Source of the DNA: Candidatus Paraimprobicoccus trichonymphae
GTDB taxonomy: Bacteria > Bacillota > Clostridia > Oscillospirales > Acutalibacteraceae
Assembly (NCBI GenBank): GCA_036322875.1
Contig: AP027925.1
Coordinates: 693,203-757,202 of the forward strand
Reading direction: 5' to 3'
DNA length: 64,000 nt
The position numbers and the translations under genes were made by a program. Under the pieces are notes generated by a model, which saw only the letters and a list, made by a program, of their open reading frames with translations, ran no database searches and was not told where the DNA came from. Positions within the stretch are counted from its first letter, which is position 1. Every line of letters starts with the position of its first letter. Below, in pieces: positions 2,930 to 64,000 of this stretch.

Positions 2930-3648
2930 GAAAACCGCTAAACTAAAGTTTAGGTTGACAAAAAAGTAATAAATTTCTATAGTCAAAAATACTTAAACTT
3001 CTACTATGAATAATTAAAGTTTTGAAACAACAGACAACTATAGGGATTTGAGAATTACATTTTTCAGTTTTAGTAGAAAAAATTTTTTGGTCTAGAGGAT
3101 ACTTTGTATCAAGCGTGTTGACCGAGGTAATGTTAAATTACATACAAAATCAAGGAAACTAAAACGGAAAAGGCATTTAAATTTAGAATATATCCGAATA
3201 AAAAACAAATCGATACAATACAAAAAACGTTTGAATGTTGTCGTTTTGTATGAAATTATTATCTTGCTAAACGAATTAATCGGTATAAATTTGCGAGATT
3301 AGCGATGAATTACAATGCACATGTTCAAGAGATTTAACACAACTAAAAAAAGTAGATTCTACTGTTGAACAGTCAATATTAAAAGATTTAGACTATATTT
3401 ATGAAAATTTTCACATAAGGTTAATAAAAAAATTCGGGATTTATGAGGTTTAAAAGTAAAAAAATTCCAAAAAATCTTTGTTTCAAAGAAAATTTCAGAA
3501 AAAATTATTTCAATTACGTTAAATCAAAATTCAAATACCGTCGAATTTACATGAATTTACGCTTGAAATGAAATGGAGTTTACTTACCATAAGACAGGTA
3601 GCCACAGAGAGCGCAGAACCAATAATCTGTGCAAGGCAAAGTGTCAAG
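2930..3648 (+). mobile_element. Internally deleted IS200/IS605-family element (left-end hairpin + promoter, tnpA 3' remnant, tnpB 5' remnant, right end)
   Basis: GAAAACCGCTAAAC..GTTTAGG hairpin followed by TTGACA-N17-TATAGT. Frame fragments FWSRGYFVSSV..YIQNQGN* (Y1 transposase C-terminus) and KAFKFRIYPNKKQIDTIQKTFECCRFV (TnpB N-terminus). 3' segment TTACGCTTGAAATGAAATGGAG...GTGTCAAG is shared with the mini-elements. Confidence 0.7.
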
Positions 3649-7207: not shown

Positions 7208-8030
7208 TAGACCTGTCCTAAAACTTTAAAATAATGCTAAAATTTTAGAAAGGACAATAAAAATAGAATTGAAAAGTTACCAGAAACAAAATATTTAGTA
7301 ACATTCGGAATAAGAAAACCAACATTTGAAACAAAGCACGCGATCCTCTAAAGCGCATACAAGGAGATGCGAAAAAAGGCGGTAGAGCGCGAAAATTGAG
7401 TGTTTTGGATATGCTAATTATTATGCTTGGATATTACCACGACTACCACACAATGGAAAATTTGGGCTTTGATTATGGTGTATCTAAACAATGAATTTCC
7501 GAGGCTGTTGCATGGCATGGGTCGAACAAACTTTAATCAAAGATGGAACATTTTCATTGCTGTCAAAACGCGAATTAATCAAGGAAAACACCACGCGATA
7601 ATTGATGTTACAGAATGCGAAACCGAGCGTCCAAAACATGGACAAAAAGCTTCATATTCGGGTAAAAAAAGACACACAATAAAAGACCAAATAGTCATAA
7701 ACGGTGACACAAAACAAATTATAGGTATTTATGAAGAAAAAGGTTCTGTGCATGATTTGGAGATTTTTAAGCGCAGCAAATTTCATTTGTTGAAAGATAT
7801 TTTATTTATTGGCGACAAAGGATATCATGGCCTAAAATTCTACCATTCAAATAGTTTGACGCTATATAAAAATCCGAAAAATGGCGAACTTACTGACGGT
7901 TTAATTCACAAATTTCAAGTTACAGAATTCGCATCTAACACGTAAATCATCGTAATACAAACACAACCTTCTTAGTTTTACTAAATTTTATTTTAGCCAT
8001 TTATAATTTTCAAATACGAACCATCTCGTT
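7208..8030 (+). pseudogene. IS5-like (PIF/Harbinger-type DDE) element, sub-type A, copy 1, degraded
   Basis: Left terminal repeat TAGACCTGTCCTAAAAC at 7208. Fragments LPETKYLVTFGIRKPTFE, AIIDVTECETERPKHGQKASYSGKKRHTIKDQ, IGDKGYHGLK. In-frame TGA where copy 3 has CGA. Frame break after ENTTR. The right end is degenerate. Confidence 0.75.
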
Positions 8031-8130: not shown

Positions 8131-8398
8131 TGGCAAGCCGGGCGGCGTAAACTTTCAAATATCAAATCAGCAATATGTATATTAACTGTTCTATCAAGGA
8201 AGTTTTAAATATATAAAAATATTTTATCTTTTTTGATTATGCTCTAAAATAGTTTATAAATAAAATTAAATGTAGCAATTTTATTTTGTGATAATTAGAA
8301 TGGCTAAAATTACAGCAAAATATGTATAAATCTGAAATCAAATTAATAATAATAAAAATGTTCATGGTGAAATTTGTTAAATTTTAAGTTTTTTGAAA
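8131..8398 (+). repeat. Unclassified repeat R1, copy 1
   Basis: Near-identical to 41297..41633 apart from a ~70-nt indel. Starts with the GC-rich hairpin GGCAAGCCGGGCGGCG and contains TTGATTATGCTCTAAAAT. Confidence 0.6.
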
Positions 8399-8552
8399 TA
8401 TATTTTTTGTGTAACCAAACAAATCGTCTAATACAACGTCTTACATTACGTGATACAGCTATAAAATTTTTAAAAACCTTTAATTCTCTAATTATGTTTT
8501 ATGTTTTTTACATACTTTATTTTTTTACGAGTATGTTTTACAAACACAATTG

Positions 8553-8791
8553 CTTTAACACTCTGCTTGGCGAAAAATCAAACAGTTTCTTGGTTCGTCC
8601 CCCAGCAATTACTCGTCTTATGTAAGCTTCCCAAGCGTAAATTCTCGTAAACCCCACGGTATTTAATTTTTAATGCTTGAAATTTCAACTTGGTTTTCGT
8701 TGAAACAACATCTCTTATAATTTTAGCATACCATTATTTTTTGTCAATATTTTTACGATTCATTCGTTAAAATAAACATTTAGCGGTTTTC
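8553..8791 (-). mobile_element. IS605-derived mini-element (left end + promoter + tnpB-3'/right end), copy D
   Basis: Reverse complement reads GAAAACCGCTAAATGTTTATTTTAACG hairpin, TTGACA-N16-TGcTAAAAT, GTTTCAACGAAAACCAAGTTGAAA hairpin, CCGTGGGGTTTACG..., ...GCCAAGCAGAGTGTTAAAG. Confidence 0.7.
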
Positions 8792-8875
8792 TTGCTGATT
8801 TATATAAATATTATAAAAGTGTATTTTTCTTTGTAGTTTAAGCAATAATATCTAAGTCAATGATCTATTTGGGAA

Positions 8876-10045
8876 GTGGTTTTTTTGGCATCAGGTGCAT
8901 TATCTTTCATTTTGAATAAAACAAGAGATTGGAAATATAAAAATGTACTAAAAAATATTAAGTTTATAGATGATTGTTTATATAAAAAAATTGAAAATTC
9001 TGAAAATGGGGTGTTTATTTCTAGCTCTTTTGATGGTAATTTTCAAGAAATGATTTGGCACAGATTAAAAATCAAATCAGAAGTACCACAAAATGGATTA
9101 TTAAAACTGAAAATTTTTGCAAGTGATTATAAGGGAATTTTTGTAAAAGAAATAGATAAAAAAATAAATGATTTAGACGAGTTTTTTTTAGATAAAAAAA
9201 TAAGTATAAATAAAAAAATTGAAGTTTTTGAAAGCATAAAAACAAAAGAATTCAAGAATCCTAAAGATTTGCTTCTATTTGATGTAACCGGGAGGTTTTT
9301 ATGGATATATTTAGAGTTAGTAAGCTATGAAAAAGAACAAATAAAAATCGAATATTTAAAAATTGAATTTCCTAGAGTTACTTTTGCAGATTATTTGCCA
9401 GATATATACAAAGAAAGTTTCGAAAATAATCTTTTTTTGTACAGATTTGTGGGAATATTTCAGTCAATGTATGTTGATACAGAAGATAATATAGATTTTA
9501 TAACTCTAAATTTTGATCCTAAAATAGCAAATTATGATTTTTTACAATGGATATCAAACTGGTTGTCTGTAAAAGATGTCCCAATTTGGGGAAAGGAAAA
9601 ACTTAGAGAAATATTAAAACATGTAGTAAATCTTTATAAAATCAAAGGAACTAAAATTTCTATATCTTTAATTGTAGAAGAATTTGTTGGTACTAAACCT
9701 ATAATAATAGAACATTTTGAAATAGAAAATAATCAATATTATAATCTACAGTCACATATTATAAATAAACTTTTTGGAGACAATAGCTTCGTATTTACAG
9801 TAATACTTACAGAAAAATATGTAAAAAACTCTGAAAAATATATAGAAATTTTAAGAGTCATAAACAGTGTGAAACCAATAGACTCTATCTGTAATTTAGT
9901 GGTGTTAAATGACAAAATATATTTAGACTATCATTGTTACTTAGAAATAAATTCCTATATTGCAAAAAATTGTGAACTTGTATTAGATGAAAACAATGAT
10001 TTGGATGTTTTAATGCTAAAAAAATTCAGTCAGGATTCAAAATAA
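8876..10045 (+). CDS. Contractile-tail/eCIS baseplate protein, P2 gpI-like tail protein domain
   Basis: FADYLPDIYKE..FLYRFVGIFQSMY...FDPKIANYDFLQWISNWLS...KLREILKHVVNLYKIKGTK matches the conserved phage tail protein I / Afp12-type pattern (from memory). Intact 389-aa ORF, GTG start. Confidence 0.7.
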   Translation: MVFLASGALSFILNKTRDWKYKNVLKNIKFIDDCLYKKIENSENGVFISSSFDGNFQEMIWHRLKIKSEVPQNGLLKLKIFASDYKGIFVKEIDKKINDLDEFFLDKKISINKKIEVFESIKTKEFKNPKDLLLFDVTGRFLWIYLELVSYEKEQIKIEYLKIEFPRVTFADYLPDIYKESFENNLFLYRFVGIFQSMYVDTEDNIDFITLNFDPKIANYDFLQWISNWLSVKDVPIWGKEKLREILKHVVNLYKIKGTKISISLIVEEFVGTKPIIIEHFEIENNQYYNLQSHIINKLFGDNSFVFTVILTEKYVKNSEKYIEILRVINSVKPIDSICNLVVLNDKIYLDYHCYLEINSYIAKNCELVLDENNDLDVLMLKKFSQDSK

Positions 10046-11999: not shown

Positions 12000-12014
12000 A
12001 GTGGTGACAATTTG

Positions 12015-12626
12015 ATGATAGAAAAACTAATGAGTTTTTTACAAAATTATGATAAATTAAGACCTTCAAAACGTGCTAGTGCTATGGATTATGTGCAACA
12101 AGGTTGTAACTTCATAGTTACTTTTAATCTTATGTACAAATATGGTTTCAAAGAAGTGTCAGGTATAGAAGTCCGCAAAAAATACGGAACAATCTCTGAA
12201 GGAGGTGTTAACGATCATGCTATTTTAGTTGGCGAGGCCGAAGGCAGTGAACTTAGTCTGGAATTCAAAAGGGGAATGTTGATAAGAGACTACTCATCAA
12301 GTGGAATTAACGCAGCTAGTGCTCTTGCCGCTGCACTGATAAATAACAATCTCCTTCGTAGAACAGCTCTTGTAAGCTTAAATTCGATTACCCCGCAAAC
12401 TGCTCTCGAAAATGGACCTTCTTTTGGCGAAATAGAAGTGTACAATAGGCAGGTTGAGCTAGTAGCAAGATATACTTTTTGGTCCGTGGGAGTAACTAGT
12501 TGGAAATTAGATGAATTAAGCGCCGAAAGCGCTAATCCATTAATAGAAGAATTTACTATAGCTCATAATGGAATAACTAGAGAACCGATATCTATACCAG
12601 AAAGTTTGAAATTAAATAATTATTAA
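12015..12626 (+). CDS. Contractile-tail/eCIS tube protein (T4 gp19 / Afp1-5-like)
   Basis: FIVTFN...GFKEVSGIEV..YGTISEGGVNDHAILVGE...LEFKRGML...IEEFTIAHNGI follows the conserved tail-tube pattern (F.V..g...gF.evsGl..e...y.eGG.n...lpg...l.L.rG). Confidence 0.75.
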   Translation: MIEKLMSFLQNYDKLRPSKRASAMDYVQQGCNFIVTFNLMYKYGFKEVSGIEVRKKYGTISEGGVNDHAILVGEAEGSELSLEFKRGMLIRDYSSSGINAASALAAALINNNLLRRTALVSLNSITPQTALENGPSFGEIEVYNRQVELVARYTFWSVGVTSWKLDELSAESANPLIEEFTIAHNGITREPISIPESLKLNNY

Positions 12627-13245: not shown

Positions 13246-14127
13246 AATAGACCTGTTTCTAAACTCAAAAACCTAACCTATGATTATACAAACTTGCAAT
13301 TAATTTGACCTTGAGTAAACCTCTTTTTCCTTTGTTTCTGTAAATTTCTTTACAAATTCTAAATATTTTTATTTCTCTATTAATGTGTTCAATTGTGATT
13401 CTTTTTTGTGCCAAAAGCCTATTTTCAACGATTTATTCTTCGGTGAGAGGATGATTTTTTGTAGCTTTTTTTGGTATTTTAGCATTCGGAAAAAATTTTT
13501 GAATTCCTTGATACCATTTATCTGCATAAATTTTAACTTCTTTCCCGAGTATTTTGGTTAAAGAGTTTTTAAATATTACAAAATTGTGTGTTGCGCTGGT
13601 TACATTAAAAACATCAAATGTTTTACGTGTTTTTGCATTAGCTAAAATTTGATATTTTGTTGTGTGCCTCTTTTTTTACTTGAGTATGATACTTTTTGTT
13701 TGTACTTCGAGGCTGTTCTTCAACATCTAAGAACAACATTTCAAAATTATTTTTTTCAGTATTATCGGATTTAAAACGTTTTTTAATCTCTTTGATCTTG
13801 AACTTTTCCTACCGTCTTAAAACATCTTCCACCCAAATTATATATTTGCATAGCGTTGACTTTGGTACTTCATAATCAAAGGCCATATGACGCATATTTT
13901 CTGTATCCTCGCCAATATTCAAGTGCATCTGAGTTCAACTGAAAGTCCATTCCTTCCACCTTTTCTGTGTGTCTATTGATACTTTTTTTAAAATTTTTAG
14001 CATTTTTTTGAATACCGCTTTTGTGACTCCTGTGATTAATTTGAAATTTTGGTCTTTTTGTTTTTTTATTTTTTCATACTTATTCATTTGTTTATTTTAC
14101 CATTTTTTGTTTTTGGACAGGTCTAAT
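13246..14127 (-). pseudogene. IS5-like element, sub-type B, complete ends, transposase frameshifted
   Basis: Terminal repeats AATAGACCTGTTTCTAAAC (13246) and GGACAGGTCTAAT (14115-14127). Minus-strand fragments ALEYWRGYRKY, FDYEVPKSTLCKYII, KKRHTTKYQILANAKTRKTFDVFN, ADKWYQGIQKF, RITIEHINREIK. Confidence 0.75.
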
Positions 14128-20484: not shown

Positions 20485-21446
20485 TAATTTTAATTATGTA
20501 GAATTTGAAATTTATGTAAAGTTGGAGGTGATGTTTTTTATTCTTTTAAAAAAAAGACCTAAATTTGAATATGTGTGGCGTATATTCAGCGAATGGTATA
20601 AAGTTGGTGGTAATCCAAGGCATTGATGTTAATATTTTTAGATATTTCTTTAAGATTTTGTATGATCTTTTTTCTTATAATATCCATAATATTATCGCTA
20701 TACGGAGAAAACAAATTGATCAAAGTTTATATCTCGTTTTCTGTCTTAATATCTGACATCCAGAGACTAATAATATTACTCAAATATTTTCTGTTGGCAA
20801 CACAATCGTATAACTTGAAACTGTATAACTATCATGTTTCAAATATTGAAATAAAAATTCGAAAAATTGTAAAAGTAATATTTGATATTTTATAGAATTT
20901 GGCGTTATAATGAATTTTTTTCTTAAATTTCATGACTTACTGTATCTGAAGCTGTATATTTCAATAGCTTTTACCGTACTGTTTGATGATTAAATACGTT
21001 AGTTTTAAGTCTTCTAAGCCGAATATTATATGTATAGTTTCATCATATAAGGTAACTCTTAGTATAATAATTAAAAAATCTCATTATTAATATTTGATAT
21101 TTATACTTAACTGCAAATTTTAGAGCAAATTTATTTATTAAGTCCTAATTTTTAGGATGGCAATCAGTTATAAAAATAAAATATTTTTGAAAAAAGTAGT
21201 TGACTAATTTAAATAATTATCGTATAGTTTATGTGCAAGGTGAAACTTGTATAAATATCAGTATAGTTTTGATATAAAACAAACGAGAAAACAGCGAGAG
21301 TATTAGCAAAAGGATATGTTGATACTGGTTGGGTATGTTTAGCTTACAGGAAGAGTTTGTGCCTTAGAAGAGTTGTGTTGGAATTTTAAAATTTTGAGAG
21401 GAGACTGCAGAGTGGAGTCAAATAGTAGAGTTTATATAAAACCGCG

Positions 21447-21675
21447 AAAAAACCGCTAAATATTTATTTTAGCGAATGAATCGCAAGAATGTTGATAAAA
21501 AAATAATGACATGCTAGAATCTCAAGAGTACTTCAACAAAAACCAAGTTAAAATTTAAAGCATAGAAAAAAGGTGCCGTGGTGGTTCACGGAAGTTTATA
21601 CTTGAAATGAAATGGAGTCGGTTGGCCTGCGGCAGACATTGGACCAGGAATCTGCGTAAAGCAGAGGGTCAAAAT
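21447..21675 (+). mobile_element. IS605-derived mini-element, copy B (reads toward rpsB)
   Basis: AAAAAACCGCTAAATATTTATTTTAGCG hairpin, TTGATA-N17-TGcTAGAAT, CCGTGGTGGTTCACGG hairpin, CTTGAAATGAAATGGAGTCGGTTGGCCTGCGG...GCAGAGGGTCAAAAT. Confidence 0.7.
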
Positions 21676-25891: not shown

Positions 25892-26770
25892 TAGCTGTTC
25901 CGATTTAAAAAAATCTGTGATATAATTAAACGATGTCATATTCAAAAGACACGCGAGAATTGGTCTTAAAATATCTCTCGAAAGGGGGCACACTTATGAA
26001 GAAGCACGTAAGTAACTAGGTGTAAGCATAAGTTCAAAAAAAGCGTGGAAAAAACTTTTAAACGAAACAGGAAATTTAGAAAAGCGGTTAAAAAGGAGAA
26101 GTGCGACGAAATTTTTCACCGAAGAGCTTGAATTTTACATAGAAGGACATCCTGGCGCAATGCTTTCAGAAATAGCAGAAAAATTTGGTGGTTCGACATC
26201 CGGTGCATTCGATGCTTTGAAACGAATAGAAATCACTTCAAAAAAAGAGTATTTTTACATCGAAAGGGGCAAAATAAAACATCAAGAATTCGATGAAAAA
26301 ATGTCTAAACCAATGTGCCGACATTGCCTATATTGACGAATGCGGTGTTAATAAGTTTATGGCAAAATATTACGGTGGAAAAAGAGTTTTTATTCCTGAG
26401 CCCGGACGAAAATTTAAGCGGATAAATATCGTTGCGAATCAAATTAACGAAAAATAGATTGCAGTCAGAATGTACAAATGGTCGATGACTGCGGCATTTT
26501 TTCAAATTTGGTTTAACTATGAACTCTGCCCAGTTTTACGTCAAAACAGCATAATTGTGATGGACAACGTTAGTTTTTACAAAAAATCGGAACTCGAAAA
26601 AATTGCATGCTTATTATAAATGCCACGTCGTTTGGCTTTCGCCATATTCTCCGGACAAAAATAAAATTGAAAAATTATGGGCAAATTTAAAAGATTGGTT
26701 GCGTTTTAATTCTAAAAATTACTTAACAATTCAAGAATCTATCTCAGCTTATTTTAAATCGGAATAGCTA
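25892..26770 (+). pseudogene. IS630-family element, copy 1 (complete inverted repeats, TA-flanked, transposase frameshifted)
   Basis: IRs TAGCTGTTCCGATTTAAAA / TTTTAAATCGGAATAGCTA with TA on both sides. Fragments KAWKKLLNETGNLEKRLKRRSATKF, IDECGVNKFMAKYYGG, IIVMDNVSFYKKSELEKI, PYSPDKNKIEKLWANLKDWLR. Confidence 0.8.
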
Positions 26771-33880: not shown

Positions 33881-34963
33881 TTAAATATAATTTTTATAAC
33901 ATAGCAGTTCAGCTAGCAATATAGCTCCTCCAGCTGCACCCCTAACAGTATTATGTGACATCGAAACAAATTTAATATCAAATTGAGTATCTTTTCTTAA
34001 TCTTCCTATCGAAATACCCATTCCATTTTCTAAATCTCTTTCATATTTAATTTGTGGTCTATCAGGTTCTGAAAAATATCTTAGAAATTTTTTAGGTGCA
34101 CTTGGTAATTTTAAGTTTCGAATATGTGCATTATAATTATTCCATTTAGATATTATTTCTTCTAAATTATCTACTTTTTTTTCAAAAGATACGAAAACAG
34201 CAGCAGCGTGTCCATCAGTTATTGGTATTCTAAAACATTGTGAAGTTATATTTATTTTATTATTTAATATAATTTTATTATCTTTGATCTTACCCCAAAT
34301 TTTAAGTGGTTCTATTTCAGATTTTTCTTCTTCACCACTTATATATGGAATTAAATTATCTCGCATCTCTGACCAGTTTTCAAAAGTTTTGCCAGCGCCT
34401 GAAATTGCTTGGTAAGTGCACACTAAAATATTTTTTATGTTTAAATCTAAAAGAGAATGTATAGCCGGCACATAACATTGTATAGAACAATTTGATTTTA
34501 CTGCTATAAAACCTTTTTTTGTGTTTAATCTTTTTTTTTGAATTTCTATAATTTCAAGATGCTCAGGATTAATTTCTGGTATTACCATAGGAATATCAAA
34601 TTCTAGTCTATTTGCACTGTTATTCGAAATTACAGGACATTCTAATTTGGCATAAGATTCTTCTAATTCTTTAGTTTCAAGTTTATTTATATTTATAGCA
34701 CAAAATACAAAATCTACTTCTGAAGCTATTTTTTTTTTATCTCTTATTAAATCTAAAATTTCAAATTTTTTTAATTTTTCGAATACAGAAATATTTAAAA
34801 TATTAGTTTTATAACTGAGAACTTCTTCTAAAGTTTTATTAGCTGATCTGTAACTTGCAGCTAAAATTTTTATTTCAAACCAAGGATGGTTTTCAAGTAA
34901 ATTCATAAATTTTTGGCCTACCATACCAGTAGCTCCTAAAATTCCTACTTTAAATTTTCGCAT
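33881..34963 (-). CDS. asd: Aspartate-semialdehyde dehydrogenase
   Basis: MRKFKVGILGATGMVGQKF, SNCSIQC active-site Cys region, SHNTVRGAAGGAIL. The ORF track starts 15 codons upstream (35008); the conserved N-terminus begins at the ATG at 34963. Confidence 0.9.
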   Translation of the reverse strand: MRKFKVGILGATGMVGQKFMNLLENHPWFEIKILAASYRSANKTLEEVLSYKTNILNISVFEKLKKFEILDLIRDKKKIASEVDFVFCAININKLETKELEESYAKLECPVISNNSANRLEFDIPMVIPEINPEHLEIIEIQKKRLNTKKGFIAVKSNCSIQCYVPAIHSLLDLNIKNILVCTYQAISGAGKTFENWSEMRDNLIPYISGEEEKSEIEPLKIWGKIKDNKIILNNKINITSQCFRIPITDGHAAAVFVSFEKKVDNLEEIISKWNNYNAHIRNLKLPSAPKKFLRYFSEPDRPQIKYERDLENGMGISIGRLRKDTQFDIKFVSMSHNTVRGAAGGAILLAELLCYKNYI

Positions 34964-35221
34964 ATTAAATAAAAATACCTCATAATTATCATTTATACAA
35001 TATAACATTCATTTTTTTGATTTTTGTGAATATAAAACCTAATTTTTCATTATAAAATAAAATTGTTCAAACTGTCAATTTTTAAAATATTCCAGGGAAT
35101 CCTCCCATAAGCTAAAGCTTGTGGGCTTCCGATATGTATTATCAAGTTTTAAAAATGATATATAATCCATTTAGTGAATGTGAATTGGAGTTCATCTCTA
35201 TCCATACGAGCAAAACTCAGC

Positions 35222-35447
35222 ATTTGCCCCTCTGCTTTGCGCAGATTTTTGGTTTAACGTTCGTCGCAGGCCAACCGACACCATTTCATTTCAAGTGTAA
35301 ATTCCCGTTGAGTCCCCACAGTGTCTTTTTTCCATGCTTTAAGTTTCAACTTGGTTTTCGTTGAAGCACTCTTGAGATTTTAACATACCATTATTTTTTG
35401 TCAATATTTTTGCAATTCATTCGCTAAAATAAATATTTAACGGTTTT
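35222..35447 (-). mobile_element. IS605-derived mini-element, copy E (reads toward asd)
   Basis: Reverse complement: AAAACCGTTAAATATTTATTTTAGCG, TTGACA-N16-TGtTAAAAT, CTTCAACGAAAACCAAGTTGAAAC, ...CTTGAAATGAAATGGTGTCGGTTGGCCTGCGACG...GCAGAGGGGCAAAT. Confidence 0.7.
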
Positions 35448-36033
35448 ATATAACAATATTAAACTGCGCGTGTTAAGCTTAATTACGTAAACGAGGAGCG
35501 GTATGGTTTCTGTATCATAAAGAAGAACTTTAGCAGCAACCCCTTACCATCGCTGGTTCAGATTTTAAAATTTTTCTTATAAAATATCTTGCACCGATAT
35601 TATATGTTGCATTTAAACCACGGTTGTACATTTTTGGGATAGAAAAAACACAAATTGAGTAGTTATACTTTTTTTCCCTTTTATACTGTATAAATTCCAC
35701 GTTCTATCTTGCAGGTACCATCGAAAGCTAATTTTGACGTACTCCATACACAAACTCTGCTGATTTTAATGCCGTTTTTTAGTGCATTATGCTCAACAAT
35801 TTTTTTACACTATAAATTAGGCTTTTGATTTTTGCTGCCTTTTTTCTTTCATGTAAATTCCAAATGCTCGAATACAATTGTGTAAACGTTATACAATAAC
35901 AAACTCTACAATTTCTTTTGTTGTTTTACGAACGATATCGGTATTGATATCATTAACATGTTGACAAAAAAAGAATAGGTGTTTTGCGAGCATCGCCTTT
36001 TTAACCCTATTTATCGATTTATACAAACCCATG

Positions 36034-36277
36034 AGAAAACCGTTAAATATTTATTTTAGCAGATGAATCATAAAAATATTGACAAAAAATAAGGGTATGC
36101 TAAAATTATGCAAAGATGTTGTTTTAAAGAAAACCAAGTTGAAGCCCAAGCATTAAAAATAAAATACCATGGGGTCACGGGAATTTGCACTTGAAATGAA
36201 ACTTACTTAAGATGAGTAATCGCCGGGACGTAAATCCAAGAATCTGTTTGGTCTTTAGCCAAGCAGAGTGTCAAAGT
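36034..36277 (+). mobile_element. IS605-derived mini-element, copy C
   Basis: GAAAACCGTTAAATATTTATTTTAGC, TTGACA (36079-36084)-N16-TGcTAAAAT (36098-36106), ...CATGGGGTCACGGGAATTTGCACTTGAAATGAAAC...GCCAAGCAGAGTGTCAAAGT. Confidence 0.7.
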
Positions 36278-36339
36278 AGGATATTTTTTTATGCAAATAT
36301 CGAAAAAATTGTTTAGCTGATAAAATATTTCGGATGATA

Positions 36340-36940
36340 TTAATCAATTTTCACTTGAAATTTGCAAGAGACATAGTATTACATGGAAACCGATAAAGAC
36401 CACATATAATACATTACATGACAAAAACTAATCTCACCATTGCGTTATTAAATCTTGCTAAAATGATGAAAAGCTTTACAACTTATCATATATGGCGTAA
36501 TCATGCAGATTTTTTAAGAAATCATTTTTGGAGAGAACAGACTTTTTGGATTGATGGTTATTTTATATGTTTCATTTGGAATATTATTTAAGCTACCCTA
36601 AAAAACTATATTGAAAATCAAGGACAATCAATCACTGTTGCCGCAATCTCGCCAGTTAAGCTAATATGATTACGACGACATTTTTTCAAAGTTATATTTA
36701 AATATTCAAGTAAAAAAATTACTGGGCTTTTTTTATTTTTCTAATTGATATATTAACTTGACAAATCGCATGCCAATTTTAGCCAACAAATTACCATTTA
36801 CACGTTTAAAACTTTAGTTAGCGGGAAATAAACGTCCAATTTTTTTGTAAATTTCATTTGTTATTTTCATTTTTCAGTATATCAAATTTTATTTCACGCA
36901 AAAAAGCTCTACTATCAATAATAATATAATAAAAAAATTT
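36340..36940. pseudogene. IS200/IS605 debris (tnpA 3' remnant on +, tnpB-like fragment on -)
   Basis: Plus-strand LLNLAKMMKSFTTYHIWRNHADFLRNHFWREQTFWIDGYF..YIENQG (Y1 transposase C-terminal half with stops). Short TnpB N-terminal-like frame on the minus strand near 36800. Confidence 0.45.
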
Positions 36941-36946
36941 TTAAGT

Positions 36947-37591
36947 TCAGAATGCTCTAAGTGCGTTCATAGCCGCAACTCCAGCATATGTTGAAACGTT
37001 TTCTAACATATTCTCAGATTTTATGTCCATCACGGTTGTTGGTGAAAGTTTGGTTCCAGTATCTTCTACTATATCGATAGCTACGCTTGCTTTTAAAGGT
37101 TTTCCCCACCTAGAAAAGCAGGCAAAATCAACATTAGCGGCTGCCATTATACCTAAAAATCCGCCAATATCCTCATCTCTGTCTGAACCCCAGTCTTCTC
37201 CCCCCCAAGAAAAAACAACATAACCACCAGCATGTTTTACTAATTTTGGCAGTGAAGTAACGTCTTCTTCCAAAAGAGAAATTCCGTTAAGACCGATCGT
37301 GTCATTCAACGTACGAAGATTGTATTCGTCAAATATATCGTACATTAGAGTGAAATTTATTTTTCGACAATTGTCCTCTTTGTCTGTTCCTCCTCGTTTC
37401 AGCTTAATTCTATTTTCTGTCATTGGCAGGATATTTGTTTTACTCTTAACAGCAAACGAAAATGTACTTGGATTAAATTGTACAGGCAATTTATCTTTTT
37501 TACTAAGATCATTGTTTAAAGTATAAATAAATGCTTTAGAAACAACACTAAAATCATTTAAGGCATATGTTCTATATGACAAAATAATCAC
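36947..37591 (-). CDS. Contractile injection system tube-initiator-like protein (Afp7/Pvc7 N-terminal-domain family)
   Basis: KAFIYTLNN....LPVQFNPSTFSF, INFTLMYD, VVFSWG, FLGIM..ANVDFACFSRWGKPLKASVAIDIVE follow the conserved CIS tube-domain pattern. Likely TTG start at 37582 after GGGGTG. Confidence 0.65.
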   Translation of the reverse strand: MIILSYRTYALNDFSVVSKAFIYTLNNDLSKKDKLPVQFNPSTFSFAVKSKTNILPMTENRIKLKRGGTDKEDNCRKINFTLMYDIFDEYNLRTLNDTIGLNGISLLEEDVTSLPKLVKHAGGYVVFSWGGEDWGSDRDEDIGGFLGIMAAANVDFACFSRWGKPLKASVAIDIVEDTGTKLSPTTVMDIKSENMLENVSTYAGVAAMNALRAF

Positions 37592-37744: not shown

Positions 37745-38480
37745 TAATTGGTGTTTTAATTAGCTAAAAACCAAACAGATTTTTATTTTTGTGTTTTTCG
37801 CGATTTTCCGTAAACTCTATTTAATTTCAGGCGTAAATTTCCATGAACCTCACAGTACTAATATTTACTTGAAATGCCAAAATTCTTAATTTTCATCTAA
37901 AATATTTTTTACAGCATTAACATTTATATCATGTTTGATACCATATTTTAGGCAAATTCAATTGAGAATTTTTAAATCTTTAATTTTAGAATTCTTAAAG
38001 CCGTGATTGCTGCATTAATTGACTTAGAAAATTTGTGATTTTTTGCCATATTCTTAATTTGTAAATTTTCTGTAACAAACGTTGAAATTTAATTATTTTT
38101 TTACCTGTTTTTTTGCTATCTTATTCGATTTTAGTAAAAAATTTTGTGGCTTAAAGAATACCCTGTATCAACCTGTCGACCGAATCAATAGTGGATTATG
38201 TACAAAATCAAGGAAACTAAAATGGAAAAGGCATTTAAATTTAAAATTTATCCGAATAAAAAACAAATTGAGATAATGCAAAAAACGTTTGGATGTTGCC
38301 AGTTTTTTATGGAACTATTTTTGCCAAACAAATCGGTCAATAAAAACTTGACAAATTAGCGATGAATTACAATACATACTCAAGCGTTATGACAAAATTA
38401 AAAAAAAAAGATTTGGCTTAGAGAAGTATATTTTACTTTTAGACAGTCAATGTTAAAAGATTTAGACTATATTTATAAAA
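37745..38480. pseudogene. Two opposed IS200/IS605 remnants (tnpB 3' half + right end on -, tnpA end + tnpB 5' end on +)
   Basis: Minus strand ENLQIKNMAKNHKFSKSINAA... then GGTTCATGGAAATTTACGCCTGAAAT. Plus strand YVQNQGN* followed by MEKAFKFKIYPNKKQIEIMQKTFGCC. Confidence 0.6.
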
Positions 38481-39222: not shown

Positions 39223-39594
39223 TTTAGGTTTAAATCTAGCCTCCAAAAAATTTTTACATTTTTGAAAGATTTTAACACGTAGAATAAAAAAAACAACACA
39301 ATAGATATAGAAAAATACGCCATTTATCTATGTAAATTACATAATTAAACATTATATGTAAATTTATTTAAAAATTTTATATACAATATGTACGTCTACT
39401 AAAATGAATTGATTATTTCTAAAAAAACGAAAAACAACACAAATATTTAAGCGAAATTTAATATATTAATGATATTTTTATTATTTTCATTGCTTTAGAT
39501 TTTGTATAAGATTTCGTAAATTTTGGAAAAATGCTTAAATTTCCCCTTAAAAATTTTCTCCATAACATCGAGTTATTTTTATAGAAAAAAGGCG

Positions 39595-39642
39595 AAAAAA
39601 CCGCTAAACTTTAGTTTAGTCGGATGAATAACCTCATCTAAA
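39595..39642 (+). mobile_element. Isolated IS605-type left-end hairpin fragment
   Basis: AAAAAACCGCTAAACTTTAGTTTAGTCGG abutting the truncated end of IS630 copy 2. Confidence 0.4.
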
Positions 39643-40472
39643 AATTAAGTAATTTTTAGAATTAAAACGCAACCAATCTTTTAAATTTGCCCATAATTTT
39701 TCAATTTTATTTTTGTCCGGAGAATATGGCGGAAGCCAAACGACGTGGCATTTATAATAAGCATGCAATTTTTTCGAGTTCCGATTTTTTGTAAAAACTA
39801 ACGTTGTCCATCACAATTATGCTGTTTTGACGTAAAACTGGGCAGAGTTCATAGTTAAACCAAATTTGAAAAAATGCCGCAGTCATCGACCATTTGTACA
39901 TTCTGACTGCAATCTATTTTTCGTTAATTTGATCCGCAACGATATTTATCCGCTTAAATTTTCGTCCGGGCTCAGGAATAAAAACTCTTTTTCCACCGTA
40001 ATGTTTTGCCATAAACTTATTAACATCGCATTCGTCAATATAGGCAATGTCGGCACATTGGTTTAGACATTTTTTCATCGAATTCTTGATGTTTTATTTT
40101 GTCCCTTTCGATGTAAAAATACTCTTTTTTTGAAGTGATTCCTATTCGTTTCAAAGCATTGAATACACCGGATGTCGAACCACCAAATTTTTCTGCTATT
40201 TCTGAAAGCATTGCGCCGGGATGTCCTTCGATGTAAGATTCAAGCTCTTCGGTGAAAAATTTTGTCGCACTTCTCCTTTTTAACCGCTTTTCTAAATTTC
40301 CTGTTTCGTTTAAAAGTTTTTTCCACGCTTTTTTGAACTTACGCTTACACCCATACACCTAGTTACTTACGTGCTTCTTCATAAGTGTGAGATATTTTAA
40401 GACCAATTCTCGCGCGTCCTTTGAATATGACAGTTTGATTATATCACAGATTCTTTTAAATCGGAATAGCTA
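39643..40472 (-). pseudogene. IS630-family element, copy 2 (inverted relative to copy 1, one end truncated)
   Basis: Near-identical to copy 1 (mirror ORFs 26305..26505 and 39866..40066 differ at 2 of 66 residues). Terminal TTTTAAATCGGAATAGCTA at 40454-40472. The other end is lost at about 39643. Confidence 0.8.
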
Positions 40473-41633: not shown

Positions 41634-41825
41634 TTAGTAAAAGTATAATTTTAAAAAAGCTAAAGTTTTCCTCATATCTAAAATATTTAAACTGCAAAAA
41701 GCTTTTGAACTTGTTATTTCAAACCATTTGAAATGTACAAATTTTTATTGGATTGTTCAACAAGTTTGCTTTGATATAACATCCATTTTGAAGAACTAAT
41801 ATAAGTAATATTTTGAAAAATTTTT

Positions 41826-42593
41826 TAAATGAAAAAATTACCAGAAACAAAATATTTAGTAACATTCGGAATAAGAAAACCAACATTTGAAGCAATGCAC
41901 GCGACCCTCATAGCGCGAAAATTGAGTGTTTTGGATATGCTAATTATTATGTTTGGATATTACCACGATTATCGCACAATGGAAAACTTGGGCTTTGATT
42001 ATGGTGTATCTGAACAACGAATTTCCGAGGCTGTTGCATGGGTCGAACAAACTTTAATCAAAGATGGAACATTTTTATTGCCGTCAAAACGCGAATTAAT
42101 CAAGGAAAACACCACGCGATAATTAATGTTATAGAATGCGAAACCTAACGTCCAAAACATGGACAAAAAGCTTCATATTCGGGTAAAAAAAGACACACAA
42201 TAAAAGACCAAATAGTCATAAACAGCGACACAAAACAAATTATAGATATTTATGAAGAAAAAGGTTTTGTGCATGATTTGGAGATTTTTAAGCGCAGCAA
42301 ATTTCATTTGTTGAAAGATATTTTATTTATTGGCGACAAAGGATATCAGGGTTTAAAACTCTACCATTCAAATAGTTTGACGCCCGTATAAAAAGCCGAA
42401 AAATGGCGAACTTACTGACGGTTTAATTCACAAATTTCAAGTTACAGAATTTGCATCGAACACGCAAATTGTTGTATTAAACGCTTCAAAATTCTTCAAC
42501 AACGCTATCGCAACAAACAAAAAAAACACTTATTAAGAATTTCTCTAATTTCGGCTATTTATAGCTATGAATTGAGGTTTTAGGACAGGTCTA
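41826..42593 (+). pseudogene. IS5-like element, sub-type A, copy 3 (5' truncated)
   Basis: MKKLPETKYLVTFGIRKPTFE..., AIINVIECET*RPKHGQKASYSGKKRHTIKDQ, IGDKGYQGLKLYHSNSLT. Right terminal repeat GTTTTAGGACAGGTCTA ends at 42593. Confidence 0.75.
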
Positions 42594-61127: not shown

Positions 61128-61281
61128 AAATTAAAATCAACTTACCTTATAATAGGTTTAATGTTTCATCGAAAACGTCTTAATATTTTCTCCACATTCG
61201 TAAATTCCGTCTGTTGTAGACGTACTTAAATTTAGTTTATTATAACAAATTTTGTTTGTCAACAAAAAATTCAAACGCAAT

Positions 61282-61310
61282 CTTATAAAAAACAAATTTT
61301 CAAATTTGTT
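61282..61310 (-). terminator. Weak A/T-rich hairpin + T-run after rpsN
   Basis: Minus strand AACAAATTTGAAAATTTGTT followed by TTTTAT. The stem is almost entirely A-T, so predicted stability is low. Confidence 0.25.
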
Positions 61311-61314
61311 CAAA

Positions 61315-61500
61315 TTACCAACTTGCTTTCGTTACACCAGGAATTTCGCCTTTATAAGCCAAATTTCTAAAACAAATACGACACACACCAAATCTTCTTA
61401 AATATGAATGCGGTCTACCACAAATATTACACCTAGAATATTCTCTAGTACTGTATTTTTGCTTTCTTTTTTGCTTTACTTTTAGAGAAACTTTTGCCAT
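61315..61500 (-). CDS. rpsN: 30S ribosomal protein S14, zinc-binding type Z (61 aa)
   Basis: [48 protein letters not shown] at 61500 sits 7 nt after GGAGG and overlaps the rplE stop. Confidence 0.93.
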
Positions 61501-62529: not shown

Positions 62530-62690
62530 TTTTGATTCTTGGCTTTACGCTTTTTATAAGTTTCATTTAATTCCAAGCGTTAATTCTAATTGAATCCCCA
62601 TGATTCTCATTTAATATTGACAATTTATTATTTTTTTAGTATTTTTGCACAACTTATCCAACCAAACTGAAGTTTAGTGATTTTTTTGCT
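62530..62690 (-). mobile_element. Shortened IS605-derived mini-element, copy G
   Basis: Reverse complement: AAAAATCACTAAACTTCAGTTTGGTTGG hairpin, ATTGTCAA, CATGGGGATTCAATTAGAATTAACGCTTGGAATTAAATGAAACTT, GCGTAAAGCCAAG. Clearly related to copies B-E but with internal deletions. Confidence 0.45.
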
Positions 62691-63355: not shown

Positions 63356-64000
63356 AATAGACCTGTCTAAAAACAAAAAAATGCTAAAAATCTTAAAAAA
63401 AGATTATCAATCGACACACTGAAAAGGTGAAAGAAAGGGATTTTCAGTTGAATTCAGATTAATAATGGCACTTGAATATTGGCGAAAATACAGAAACATG
63501 CGTCATATGGCCTTTGACTATGAAGTACCAAAATCAACGCTATGCAAATATATAATTTTTTGGGTGGAAGATGTGCTAAGACAGTCGGAAGAGTTCAAGA
63601 TCAAAGAGATTAAAGAACGTTTTAAACCCGGTAATATTGAAAAAAATAATTTTGAAATGTTGTTCTTAGATGTTGAACAACAGCCCCGAAGTACAAACAA
63701 AAAGTATCATACTCAGGTAAAAAAAGAGGCACACAACAAAATATCAAATTTTAGCCAATGCAAAAACACGTGAAATACTTGATGGTTTTTAATGCAATCG
63801 ACGCAACACACGATTTTGTAATATTTAAAAATTCTTTAGCCAAAACACTCGGGAAAAAAGTTAAAATTTATAGTATAAAGAAGTATACTATGGTATCTAT
63901 TTTTTACAAATTATGTCTAATATATACATAACATGAAACTATCGGAAGCAAATAACAAAAATATGTGACGATCGATTTTCATCTAAAACTGTGTAATTTT
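63356..64000 (+). pseudogene. IS5-like element, sub-type B, copy 2 (runs off the window)
   Basis: AATAGACCTGTCTAAAAAC left end. ALEYWRKYRNMRHMAFDYEVPKSTLCKYIIFWVEDVL. Same frame break in the GTAAAAAAAGAGG tract as the copy at 13246-14127. Confidence 0.7.

Follow-up and report, generated by a model that had tools for sequence, protein, structure and literature searches.

Elements without coding genes are the closest described counterparts of the repeats analysed here. Meers et al. 2023 (PMC10055086) described such elements, resembling palindrome-associated transposable elements (PATEs), in Geobacillus stearothermophilus; PATEs "often encode omega-RNAs", which need TnpB from other elements in trans (PMC10055086). 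A C. difficile PATE with ends of the IStron type has also been figured (bioRxiv 10.1101/2023.11.20.567912). The omega-RNA of TnpB is the same molecule as the right-element RNA (reRNA; Karvelis et al. 2021, PMC8612924; cryo-EM PMC10097598). Here we describe a family of mini-elements, represented by the copy originally predicted at 36034-36277, in a 64-kb window of Candidatus Paraimprobicoccus trichonymphae RsTa-C01 (contig AP027925.1, positions 693,203 to 757,202). Omega-RNA-encoding PATEs having already been described, the mini-elements are another example. Based on the comparisons below, they are very probably non-autonomous deletion derivatives of an insertion sequence (IS) of the IS200/IS605 family, that is, PATEs with an omega-RNA scaffold, and now most likely decaying relics.

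RsTa-C01, a member of the Clostridia, lives as an endosymbiont in Trichonympha agilis, a protist of the termite gut, and has a circular genome of 1,276,969 bp, 27.5% GC and 839 coding sequences (PMC10579323). It has 248 pseudogenes, mainly of the mobilome, and no CRISPR-Cas (PMC10579323). The published pseudogene table contains 10 entries named "REP element-mobilizing transposase RayT" and about two dozen named "Transposase", and the genome paper is silent on the repeats described here (PMC10579323). The window covers ~5% of this 1.28-Mb genome, and all copy counts and gene searches given below refer to the window. The COG name "RayT" presumably covers IS200-type Y1 transposases.

The mini-elements resemble PATEs in lacking coding capacity, in occurring as several dispersed copies and in having a conserved pentanucleotide beside the left end. 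Each of their ends has a homologue in autonomous elements and contains a subterminal hairpin, and the right end bears an omega-RNA scaffold that would serve TnpB in trans. They may differ from published PATEs in that the deletion has left a near-consensus sigma-70 motif ~60 nt before the scaffold. Other differences are the age of the copies (65-80% identity) and the host, a reduced endosymbiont whose tnpA and tnpB pieces, as far as seen, are all pseudogenes and which appears to have lost both enzymes. As in the omega-RNA/reRNA of TnpB, the scaffold lies at the tnpB 3' end and transposon right end, comprises several helices and stops at the transposon boundary, and the guide would come from the flanking DNA. 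In contrast to that RNA, the scaffold of the mini-elements' clade lies almost wholly downstream of the tnpB stop; in the mini-elements it stands without a tnpB gene, and no Rfam family covers it. Like the guides of TldR proteins, which are nuclease-dead, TnpB-derived RNA-guided repressors (PMC10705468), the mini-elements would be omega-RNA-like guide genes that outlive transposition. However, TldR guide genes adjoin the protein gene and target promoters, whereas no such protein was seen here.

Copies of the mini-element and their transposon ends

Alignment recovered four full copies of ~240-260 nt, and an nhmmer profile built from these four matched all of them in the window. This is in agreement with the original prediction of four well-conserved copies, the boundaries of which are slightly corrected here. 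We refer to the copies by their originally predicted first positions (36034, 8553, 21447 and 35222), and handles beginning with L denote outside loci and contigs. The four copies and the parts of the 36034 copy are as follows:

36023-36274, plus strand: mini-element of 252 nt, subfamily A (profile match 36018-36276, E 7.6e-62)
8555-8803, minus strand: mini-element, subfamily A, with scaffold 8555-8667 and promoter motif 8747-8720 (profile match 8553-8808, E 2.1e-61)
21436-21672, plus strand: mini-element, subfamily B, with scaffold match 21568-21672 and promoter motif 21492-21520 (profile match 21431-21673, E 2.5e-72)
35224-35458, minus strand: mini-element, subfamily B, with scaffold match 35224-35329 and promoter motif 35404-35377 (profile match 35223-35461, E 3e-71)
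36018-36022, plus strand: left flank TTTAT of the 36034 copy, presumed insertion target or transposon-adjacent motif
36040-36068, plus strand: left-end subterminal hairpin, CCGTTAAA-TATTTAT-TTTAGCA, then GATGAAT, aligned with L193, L199, L211 and L209
36079-36106, plus strand: sigma-70-like motif TTGACA-16-TGcTAAAAT, with 11/12 matches and TG extension, of predicted activity only
36117-36156, plus strand: tnpB tail remnant (about the last 14 codons and the stop), aligned by eye, containing the "small hairpin" 36123-36143
36159-36274, plus strand: omega-RNA-like scaffold and non-coding right end, from matches of models built on outside sequences
36167-36180, plus strand: helix P1
36190-36193 paired with 36237-36240, plus strand: helix P2
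36244-36251 paired with 36259-36266, plus strand: helix P3, loop TCTTTAG, then tail AGTGTCAA

The two subfamilies (A, the 36034 and 8553 copies; B, the 21447 and 35222 copies) show ~80% identity within and ~65% between them, the copies being 20-35% diverged. The exact pattern of the left-end hairpin had no match in 100 shuffles, and the exact pattern of the right-end core was found six times, compared with a mean of 0.31 in shuffled sequence. Coding capacity is nil, as all three sense frames of each copy are broken by stops; the only open reading frames (ORFs) of at least 80 residues overlapping copies (8374-8625 and 35119-35364, 81-83 residues) lie on the strand opposite to the element. A blastn search with the mini-element against plasmids gave no match. 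A scan of genome contigs with the loose pattern TTTRYRCTTGAAATGAAA returned 115 chance loci, none related by blastn, and a gapped right-end pattern returned 12 chance loci in metagenome contigs. Of two pattern scans of viral contigs, one gave a chance match in a VRR-NUC-like ORF and the second none.

Outside sequences for comparison were collected in two steps. A tblastn search against plasmids identified tnpB genes of Ruminococcus albus and Clostridioides difficile (~49% identity), and these served as queries that yielded 80 full-length tnpB loci from viral contigs (IMG/VR). The loci closest to the window's TnpB N-terminal fragments (L178, L163, L206 and L162) are 57-60% identical to them. 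With a composite of the window's N-terminal fragments as the query, L178 and L206 showed 59-60% identity, and the first 50 residues alone as much as 70%.

Five of these loci (L193, L199, L202, L211 and L209) have a left end, 50-690 nt upstream of tnpB, that is matched by profile positions 16-75 of the mini-element. The nhmmer match has an E-value of 0.011 on L193, L199 and L202. The tip, the hairpin and the motif GGATGAAT of the mini-elements align with L193, L199, L211 and L209, and a tnpA ORF is readable between the left end and tnpB in L193, L199 and L211. The IMG/VR elements differ from the mini-elements in encoding intact proteins, and the two share no blastn-detectable DNA identity, being linked only by profile and covariance models. 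This alignment with complete tnpA-tnpB elements upholds the left-end hairpin of the original prediction and supports the assignment of the left ~100 nt of the mini-elements as a genuine IS200/IS605 left end. Together with the broken reading frames, the homology of both ends to autonomous elements also sustains the wider proposal of a PATE-like, non-coding IS200/IS605 derivative. A local alignment of the left-end hairpin to DNA encoding the TnpB zinc finger was rejected as an AT-rich artefact.

The left ends extend 11-16 nt beyond the limits originally given, up to a flanking TTTAT or TTTAA. TTTAT abuts the left-end tip in the 36034, 21447 and 8553 copies and TTTAA in the 35222 copy; TTTAA(A) occupies the same place in the left flanks of the outside elements L193, L199 and L202. 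The right flanks of the four copies differ and contain no repeat of TTTAT. We place the right end of the mini-elements, by analogy, directly after GTCAA (36274 and 21672 on the plus strand, 35224 and 8555 on the minus strand), because duplicated outside elements with different flanks show a matching end, directly after TTCAA, GTCAC or TTCAG.

The right end and its guide-RNA scaffold

In the outside loci the 95-125 nt after the tnpB stop share one plan, and the right half of the mini-elements is related in both sequence and structure to this ~100-nt scaffold, as found in 40+ full-length elements. A P1 hairpin (CCGTAGG..CTACGG) is followed by a linker, a long-range helix (P2) around a variable interior, GAATC, a P3 hairpin with a CTTTAG-type loop and a tail (for example, GAGGTTCAA). 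The mini-elements share this arrangement, with P1, the linker GAAGTTACG/GAATTTAC, P2, GAATC, P3 with the CTTTAG-type loop and a tail ending in ..GTTCAA or ..GTGTCAA. The P3 loop of the right end reads TCTTTAG, compared with TATTTAT in the left-end hairpin, and the tail AGTGTCAA would be the cleavage tail. Covariation was analysed in the alignments A6 (23 compact-class sequences) and A7 (the 11 sequences closest to those of the window). In A6, 92.7% of cells are paired and 14/19 pairs are compensatory; the corresponding values in A7 are 94.6% and 13/22. For both alignments the covariation score was reached by 0/500 shuffles, and registers slid by 1-3 columns were only 30-47% paired. These values are strong evidence that the outside tnpB right ends form a three-helix RNA supported by covariation.

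We then used covariance models built from outside sequences alone (R1, the compact class; R2, the 11 closest sequences; R3, the broadest, 43 outside sequences), the E-values of which are rough by design. R2 found a match immediately 3' of tnpB in 37/38 held-out loci, at 16-64 bits. Within the window, R2 matched the scaffolds of subfamily A at 8555-8667 on the minus strand (35.6 bits, E 2.2e-6) and 36159-36274 on the plus strand (25.6 bits, E 4.4e-4), and gave its best match at 61131-61230 on the minus strand (39.0 bits, E 3.7e-7). A further match at 37810-37863 on the minus strand reached 17 bits (E 0.043), and the best unrelated match scored 15.3 bits. At exactly homologous coordinates, the subfamily B copies scored 15.0 bits (21568-21672, E 0.12) and 12.8 bits (35224-35329, E 0.4). 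The four top-ranking R3 matches in the window all fall on the mini-elements (28.2, 23.9, 18.2 and 15.9 bits), with that at the 35222 copy mis-registered. The 36034 copy reached 28.2 bits with this model (E 1.1e-5), the 8553 copy 23.9 bits (E 1.8e-4) and the 21447 copy 15.9 bits (E 0.033). R1 was set aside as too distant for the window copies.

From these scores we conclude that subfamily A carries a recognisable omega-RNA-type scaffold and subfamily B a damaged one. The scores of subfamily A lie within the range of held-out bona fide scaffolds. In subfamily B a 10-nt deletion cuts P3 to 4 bp, the P2 interior is different and helix P2b is broken. The proposal that the 3' segment corresponds to an omega-RNA scaffold is borne out by these matches to subfamily A and by the covariation of the structure in outside homologues. 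RNAalifold and single folds of the window copies alone were uninformative, the four copies falling into two pairs.

Upstream of the scaffold, residues of a tnpB reading frame can be traced. The region 36117-36156 aligns by eye with the end of a tnpB remnant (37889-37950, minus strand) reading ..VNAVKNILDEN, and also with the NILNEGLRLLSA end, followed by the stop, of L178 and L206; at the protein level the resemblance is weak, with 3 identities and 2 similarities among 10 residues. An earlier view that only the tnpB stop codon was kept was rejected after the comparison with 37889-37950, which indicates that ~14 codons remain. The "small hairpin" at 36123-36143 has imperfect pairing in two copies and lacks compensatory changes. 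The right ~165 nt are supported as about the last 14 tnpB codons plus the whole non-coding right end of ~110 nt. The original description of the final ~150 nt of tnpB plus the right end was about right in length, but only ~45 nt are former coding sequence and the rest is non-coding right end. The same arrangement, with the scaffold following tnpB, is found in RsTa-C01 itself, because the tnpB remnant at 37889-38070 on the minus strand directly precedes a right-half copy.

Several further observations concern the right ends. The B copies share the 10-nt deletion in P3 even though they occupy two different loci. Subfamilies A and B have a common left end and deletion junction but differ in the P2 interior, a pattern suggestive of recombination between right ends. 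Six viral-contig loci have an additional match to the omega-RNA model 60-560 nt upstream of the tnpB start, at 53 bits in L156 (L156:1325-1422, L195:1333-1444, L179:1329-1434, L144:1316-1417, L172:956-1047 and L166:942-989). These loci seem to have a second right end just before the element, and tandem or targeted insertions could account for it. The Rfam family RAGATH-18 (RF03064) gave a sub-threshold match on the right end of the C. difficile tnpB at L137:3644-3698 (32.9 bits compared with a gathering threshold of 44.9), and may overlap part of a TnpB guide-RNA scaffold.

Decayed relatives and the promoter motif

Besides the four full copies, the window contains fragments and decayed relatives of the same elements:

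2930-3647, plus strand: long decayed relative with hairpin, TTGACA-17-TATAGT, tnpA and tnpB fragments and right end
36283-36624, plus strand: Y1 transposase (tnpA) pseudogene with two stops (Pfam Y1_Tnp, E 1.2e-10, positions 10-121/121)
37889-38070, minus strand: tnpB C-terminal remnant (tblastn), followed by a decayed right-end scaffold at 37810-37874 (nhmmer E 2e-4)
38222-38479: TnpB N-terminal fragment (tblastn)
39589-39629, plus strand: left-end remnant (nhmmer E 1e-3)
61131-61335, minus strand: decayed mini-element with scaffold 61131-61230 (R2 39.0 bits, R3 only 11.1 bits)
62530-62690, minus strand: shortened decayed relative upstream of rplX (L24, Pfam)

The original prediction had described a longer relative at 2930-3648 with fragments of both genes, and the searches confirm it. 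By tblastn, it has a TnpA C-terminal fragment at 3052-3156 and, at 3167-3432, N-terminal pieces of TnpB with as much as 70% identity to L178, and its right end at 3527-3647 is matched by nhmmer (E 4.3e-12). The shortened copy described at 62530-62690 shares the layout by eye, but its sequence similarity is weak (61% identity over 79 nt; profile match 62564-62604, nhmmer E 0.24) and its promoter hexamers are gone. The scaffold at 61131-61230 and the right-end remnant at 37810-37874 (both minus strand) and the left-end remnant at 39589-39629 (plus strand) had been missed. In the 61131 element, a hairpin and TTGACA-12-TATAAT precede the scaffold, within the ~220-nt spacer between rpsN (S14) and rpsH (S8) (Pfam). 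It looks like a further decayed mini-element, which would be part of the transcript of the ribosomal-protein operon.

The right end of the 36034 copy is immediately followed by the tnpA pseudogene at 36283-36624, which shows 34-36% identity to the TnpA proteins of L193 and L211 (tblastn). The 36034 copy appears to be nested in an older IS, and because it is inserted within this tnpA pseudogene element, its position suggests that it was once mobile. A left-end-like stretch containing TTGACA lies at 35949-35975 on the plus strand, just before the TTTAT of the 36034 copy.

No intact tnpB or tnpA was found in the 64-kb window, where tblastn returned fragments only; for tnpB this is as originally stated. 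A search for a cognate TnpB with the window's TnpB fragments gave 59% identity at best and no match from RsTa-C01, the annotated proteins of which are included in the database. A protein-homologue search with the pseudo-TnpB returned short N-terminal fragments only, and the contigs found (L116-L122) share no DNA with the element.

A promoter motif is present in all four full copies, as had been claimed, ~60 nt upstream of the scaffold. Three copies have TTGACA-16-TAAAAT with a TG extension (11/12 matches), the 21447 copy has TTGATA-17-TAGAAT, also with a TG extension (10/12 matches), and the long relative at 2930-3647 has TTGACA-17-TATAGT at the homologous place. By its match to the consensus, the motif would probably fire with a standard sigma-A. 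The further claim, that the promoter is specially conserved and selected, did not hold. Of the hexamer columns 10/13 are invariant, compared with 66/98 in the rest of the left half (Fisher p 0.75). The 62530 relative has lost both hexamers, those of the 61131 element are mis-spaced with a 12-nt spacer, the 39589 remnant retains the -10 box only and the 35949 stretch the -35 box only.

In addition, the -35 box aligns with the tnpA start codon (ATG) of L193 and L199, the closest left-end homologues, and the spacer and -10 box align, by reading of the sequences, with their tnpA codons 5-12. Because of these alignments the motif is placed in former tnpA coding DNA; it could date from the ancestor or have arisen incidentally as the sequence decayed towards AT-richness. 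As the hexamers are of average conservation, older relatives have lost the motif and the motif overlaps tnpA codons, the comparisons give no support for selection on the promoter, and selection on the RNA likewise finds none.

The window also contains debris of other mobile elements. A 690-nt inverted repeat with 98% identity and an IS630-type helix-turn-helix ORF occupies 26037-26726 and 39645-40334, and a DDE_Tnp_1/4 remnant at 7229-7957 is repeated at 41790-42479 (~95-97% identity over the core, 70-83% at the edges). Both are much younger than the mini-elements. Genes of phage-tail or contractile-injection type (Tail_P2_I, gp19-type tube, CIS_tube) lie amid IS debris at 8876-10045, 12012-12626 and 36947-37591 (minus strand), and an inverted repeat of ~380 nt with 90-95% identity links 13526-13899 and 63494-63871. 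In the hrcA-grpE-dnaK cluster no ORF of dnaJ length follows dnaK (20485-21430), the only ORF there being one of 90 residues at 20623-20895; dnaJ may be lost or a pseudogene.

Origin, present state and rival explanations

Under the proposed origin, one internal deletion would have joined a left-end piece of an IS200/IS605-family element to a piece containing the tnpB tail and the right end. The left piece would consist of the tip, the hairpin bound by the transposase and a stretch of the tnpA region equivalent to about its first 10 codons; this stretch reads as a near-consensus sigma-70 promoter. The right piece would contribute about the last 14 tnpB codons and the complete non-coding right end. 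As DNA, this right end would offer the transposase a second hairpin to bind (P3, loop TCTTTAG) and would contain the tail for cleavage (..GTCAA); in RNA form it would be an omega-RNA scaffold of P1, the long-range P2, P3 and a tail running into a guide copied from the flank. In the past, the elements would have been transferred in single-stranded form, by TnpA acting in trans, to positions 3' of TTTAT. Each copy would have made its own guide from the internal promoter for TnpB in trans, and such copy-specific guides would have allowed the homing or retention mechanism demonstrated for full elements. Transcription, use by TnpB and mobility of the mini-elements are what we infer from this anatomy, on which the suggestion that they were "built to express" a guide RNA would also rest.

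At present the elements are most likely immobile relics, given the 20-35% divergence of the copies, the loss of most of P3 from subfamily B and the pseudogene state of all tnpA and tnpB pieces seen. The promoter, if it fires, would only add read-through transcription to downstream sequence, and the copies most likely have no present-day function beyond such incidental transcription. We consider it improbable that the deletion was other than arbitrary, in the sense of a fusion of promoter and scaffold by which each protein-less copy makes its own homing guide and exploits TnpA and TnpB in trans, with some copies retained after the decay of both enzymes because of the transcription they now supply to the essential genes rpsB, asd and those of the spc operon.

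A number of results weigh against parts of this account. The subfamily B scaffolds score at the noise level of the window (12.8-15.9 bits compared with 15.3 for the best unrelated match), the R1 model gave weak matches only (E 0.05-0.7, the best being the 8553 copy at E 0.05), and the right end of the long relative at 2930-3647 reached only 7.8 bits with R2. The comparison with Rfam was negative for the 3' segment: a scan of the window with Rfam 15 returned a single tRNA, no family reached its gathering threshold for this segment, and nothing relevant was found at 35100-36400 at E-values up to 10. Single-copy folds of the 3' part are no stabler than shuffled sequence (z 0.20 and -0.08). The left half has 76/111 invariant columns compared with 55/136 in the RNA half (p 1e-5), and this lower conservation speaks against the RNA being under selection today. 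The promoter motif, lying in former tnpA coding DNA, may be fortuitous, and the element boundaries and target motif rest on analogy with outside elements.

One rival explanation holds that, after the death of the transposon, the copies were kept as exapted promoter or leader modules that drive or modulate rpsB, asd, rpsH and rplX. This would account for the position of 4/6 elements directly upstream of an essential gene in the same orientation. From the end of the 21447 copy it is 102 nt to the GTG start codon of rpsB (21775), and between 21300 and that start the element's own site is the sole sense-strand sigma-70-like site found; asd (33881-35008, minus strand) follows the 35222 copy at a distance of 215-260 nt. 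The better conservation of the promoter-bearing left half relative to the RNA half points the same way. However, asd has its own promoter-like site between the gene and the element, the promoter spacing is lost in the 61131 element and the hexamers in the 62530 element, hexamer conservation does not exceed that of the adjoining left-end sequence, and the 8553 and 36034 copies have no such downstream gene. Co-orientation with leading-strand genes would in any case be expected from fork-linked insertion, as Ton-Hoang et al. are said to have tied the orientation of IS200/IS605 insertions to the direction of the replication fork in 2010. Cumulative GC skew peaks at ~31-32 kb, where gene orientation flips from plus to minus, and the window probably spans the replication terminus. 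Most elements (7/12 IS200/IS605 pieces) are oriented along the fork direction deduced from this maximum; those that are not lie grouped at 8.5 kb and 36-40 kb, regions of weaker skew than most of that arm. On balance we regard exaptation as improbable.

It is considerably less probable still that the copies are working guide-RNA genes, transcribed today and loading an intact TnpB or a TldR-type TnpB-like regulator encoded elsewhere in the genome, with flank-derived guides serving homing or gene regulation. The presence in each of the four copies of a strong promoter motif ~60 nt before a complete scaffold, the scores of subfamily A within the held-out range and the small part of the genome (5%) covered by the window are in its favour. 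The window, though, contains no intact tnpB, the best TnpB match is only 59% identical with none from RsTa-C01 among its annotated proteins, and the table of this genome lists many transposase pseudogenes. The 20-35% divergence, the damage to P1, P2b or P3 in several copies and the faster evolution of the RNA half also speak against it, and guides derived from the flanks would match only the vacated donor site.

Least probable by far, to the point that we give it hardly any credence, is a repeat family unrelated to transposons, such as palindromes of the repetitive extragenic palindrome (REP) or bacterial interspersed mosaic element (BIME) type, terminator modules or small-RNA genes, with a superficial IS200/IS605 likeness. 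On the antisense strand three hairpins with T-runs do score as terminator-like. REPs are palindromes of 20-40 nt without a promoter or guide-RNA scaffold, unlike the mini-elements of ~240 nt with an internal 110-nt scaffold, and the REP-associated tyrosine transposase (RAYT) is a domesticated Y1 transposase. The mini-elements resemble REP/BIME-RAYT systems in being hairpin repeats handled by a relative of the Y1 (HUH) transposases, and 10 Y1-type pseudogenes of RsTa-C01 carry the RayT COG label (PMC10579323). In contrast to those systems, the mini-element ends match transposon ends and the Y1 genes are of the IS200 type (Pfam Y1_Tnp). The homology to both ends of complete tnpA-tnpB elements is specific and collinear, relatives in the window hold tnpA and tnpB fragments between the same ends, and the alignments, tblastn and covariance-model matches already contradict an origin outside transposons.

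Taken as PATE-type deletion derivatives, the mini-elements are a natural example of IS200/IS605 elements that keep the guide-RNA module together with the transposase-binding ends, in line with the idea that retention through TnpB is important for non-autonomous elements too. For this TnpB clade, the closest sampled relatives of which are in Clostridia and in IMG/VR viral contigs, the analysis describes a scaffold that lies almost wholly downstream of the stop, with three covarying helices absent from Rfam, and supplies a seed alignment for the omega-RNA family. No new mechanism is involved. For the reduced endosymbiont, the finding explains several unannotated intergenic repeats, two of them beside or inside ribosomal-protein operons, and its practical value is in annotation, as these repeats are to be recorded as transposon relics and not as genes or regulators.

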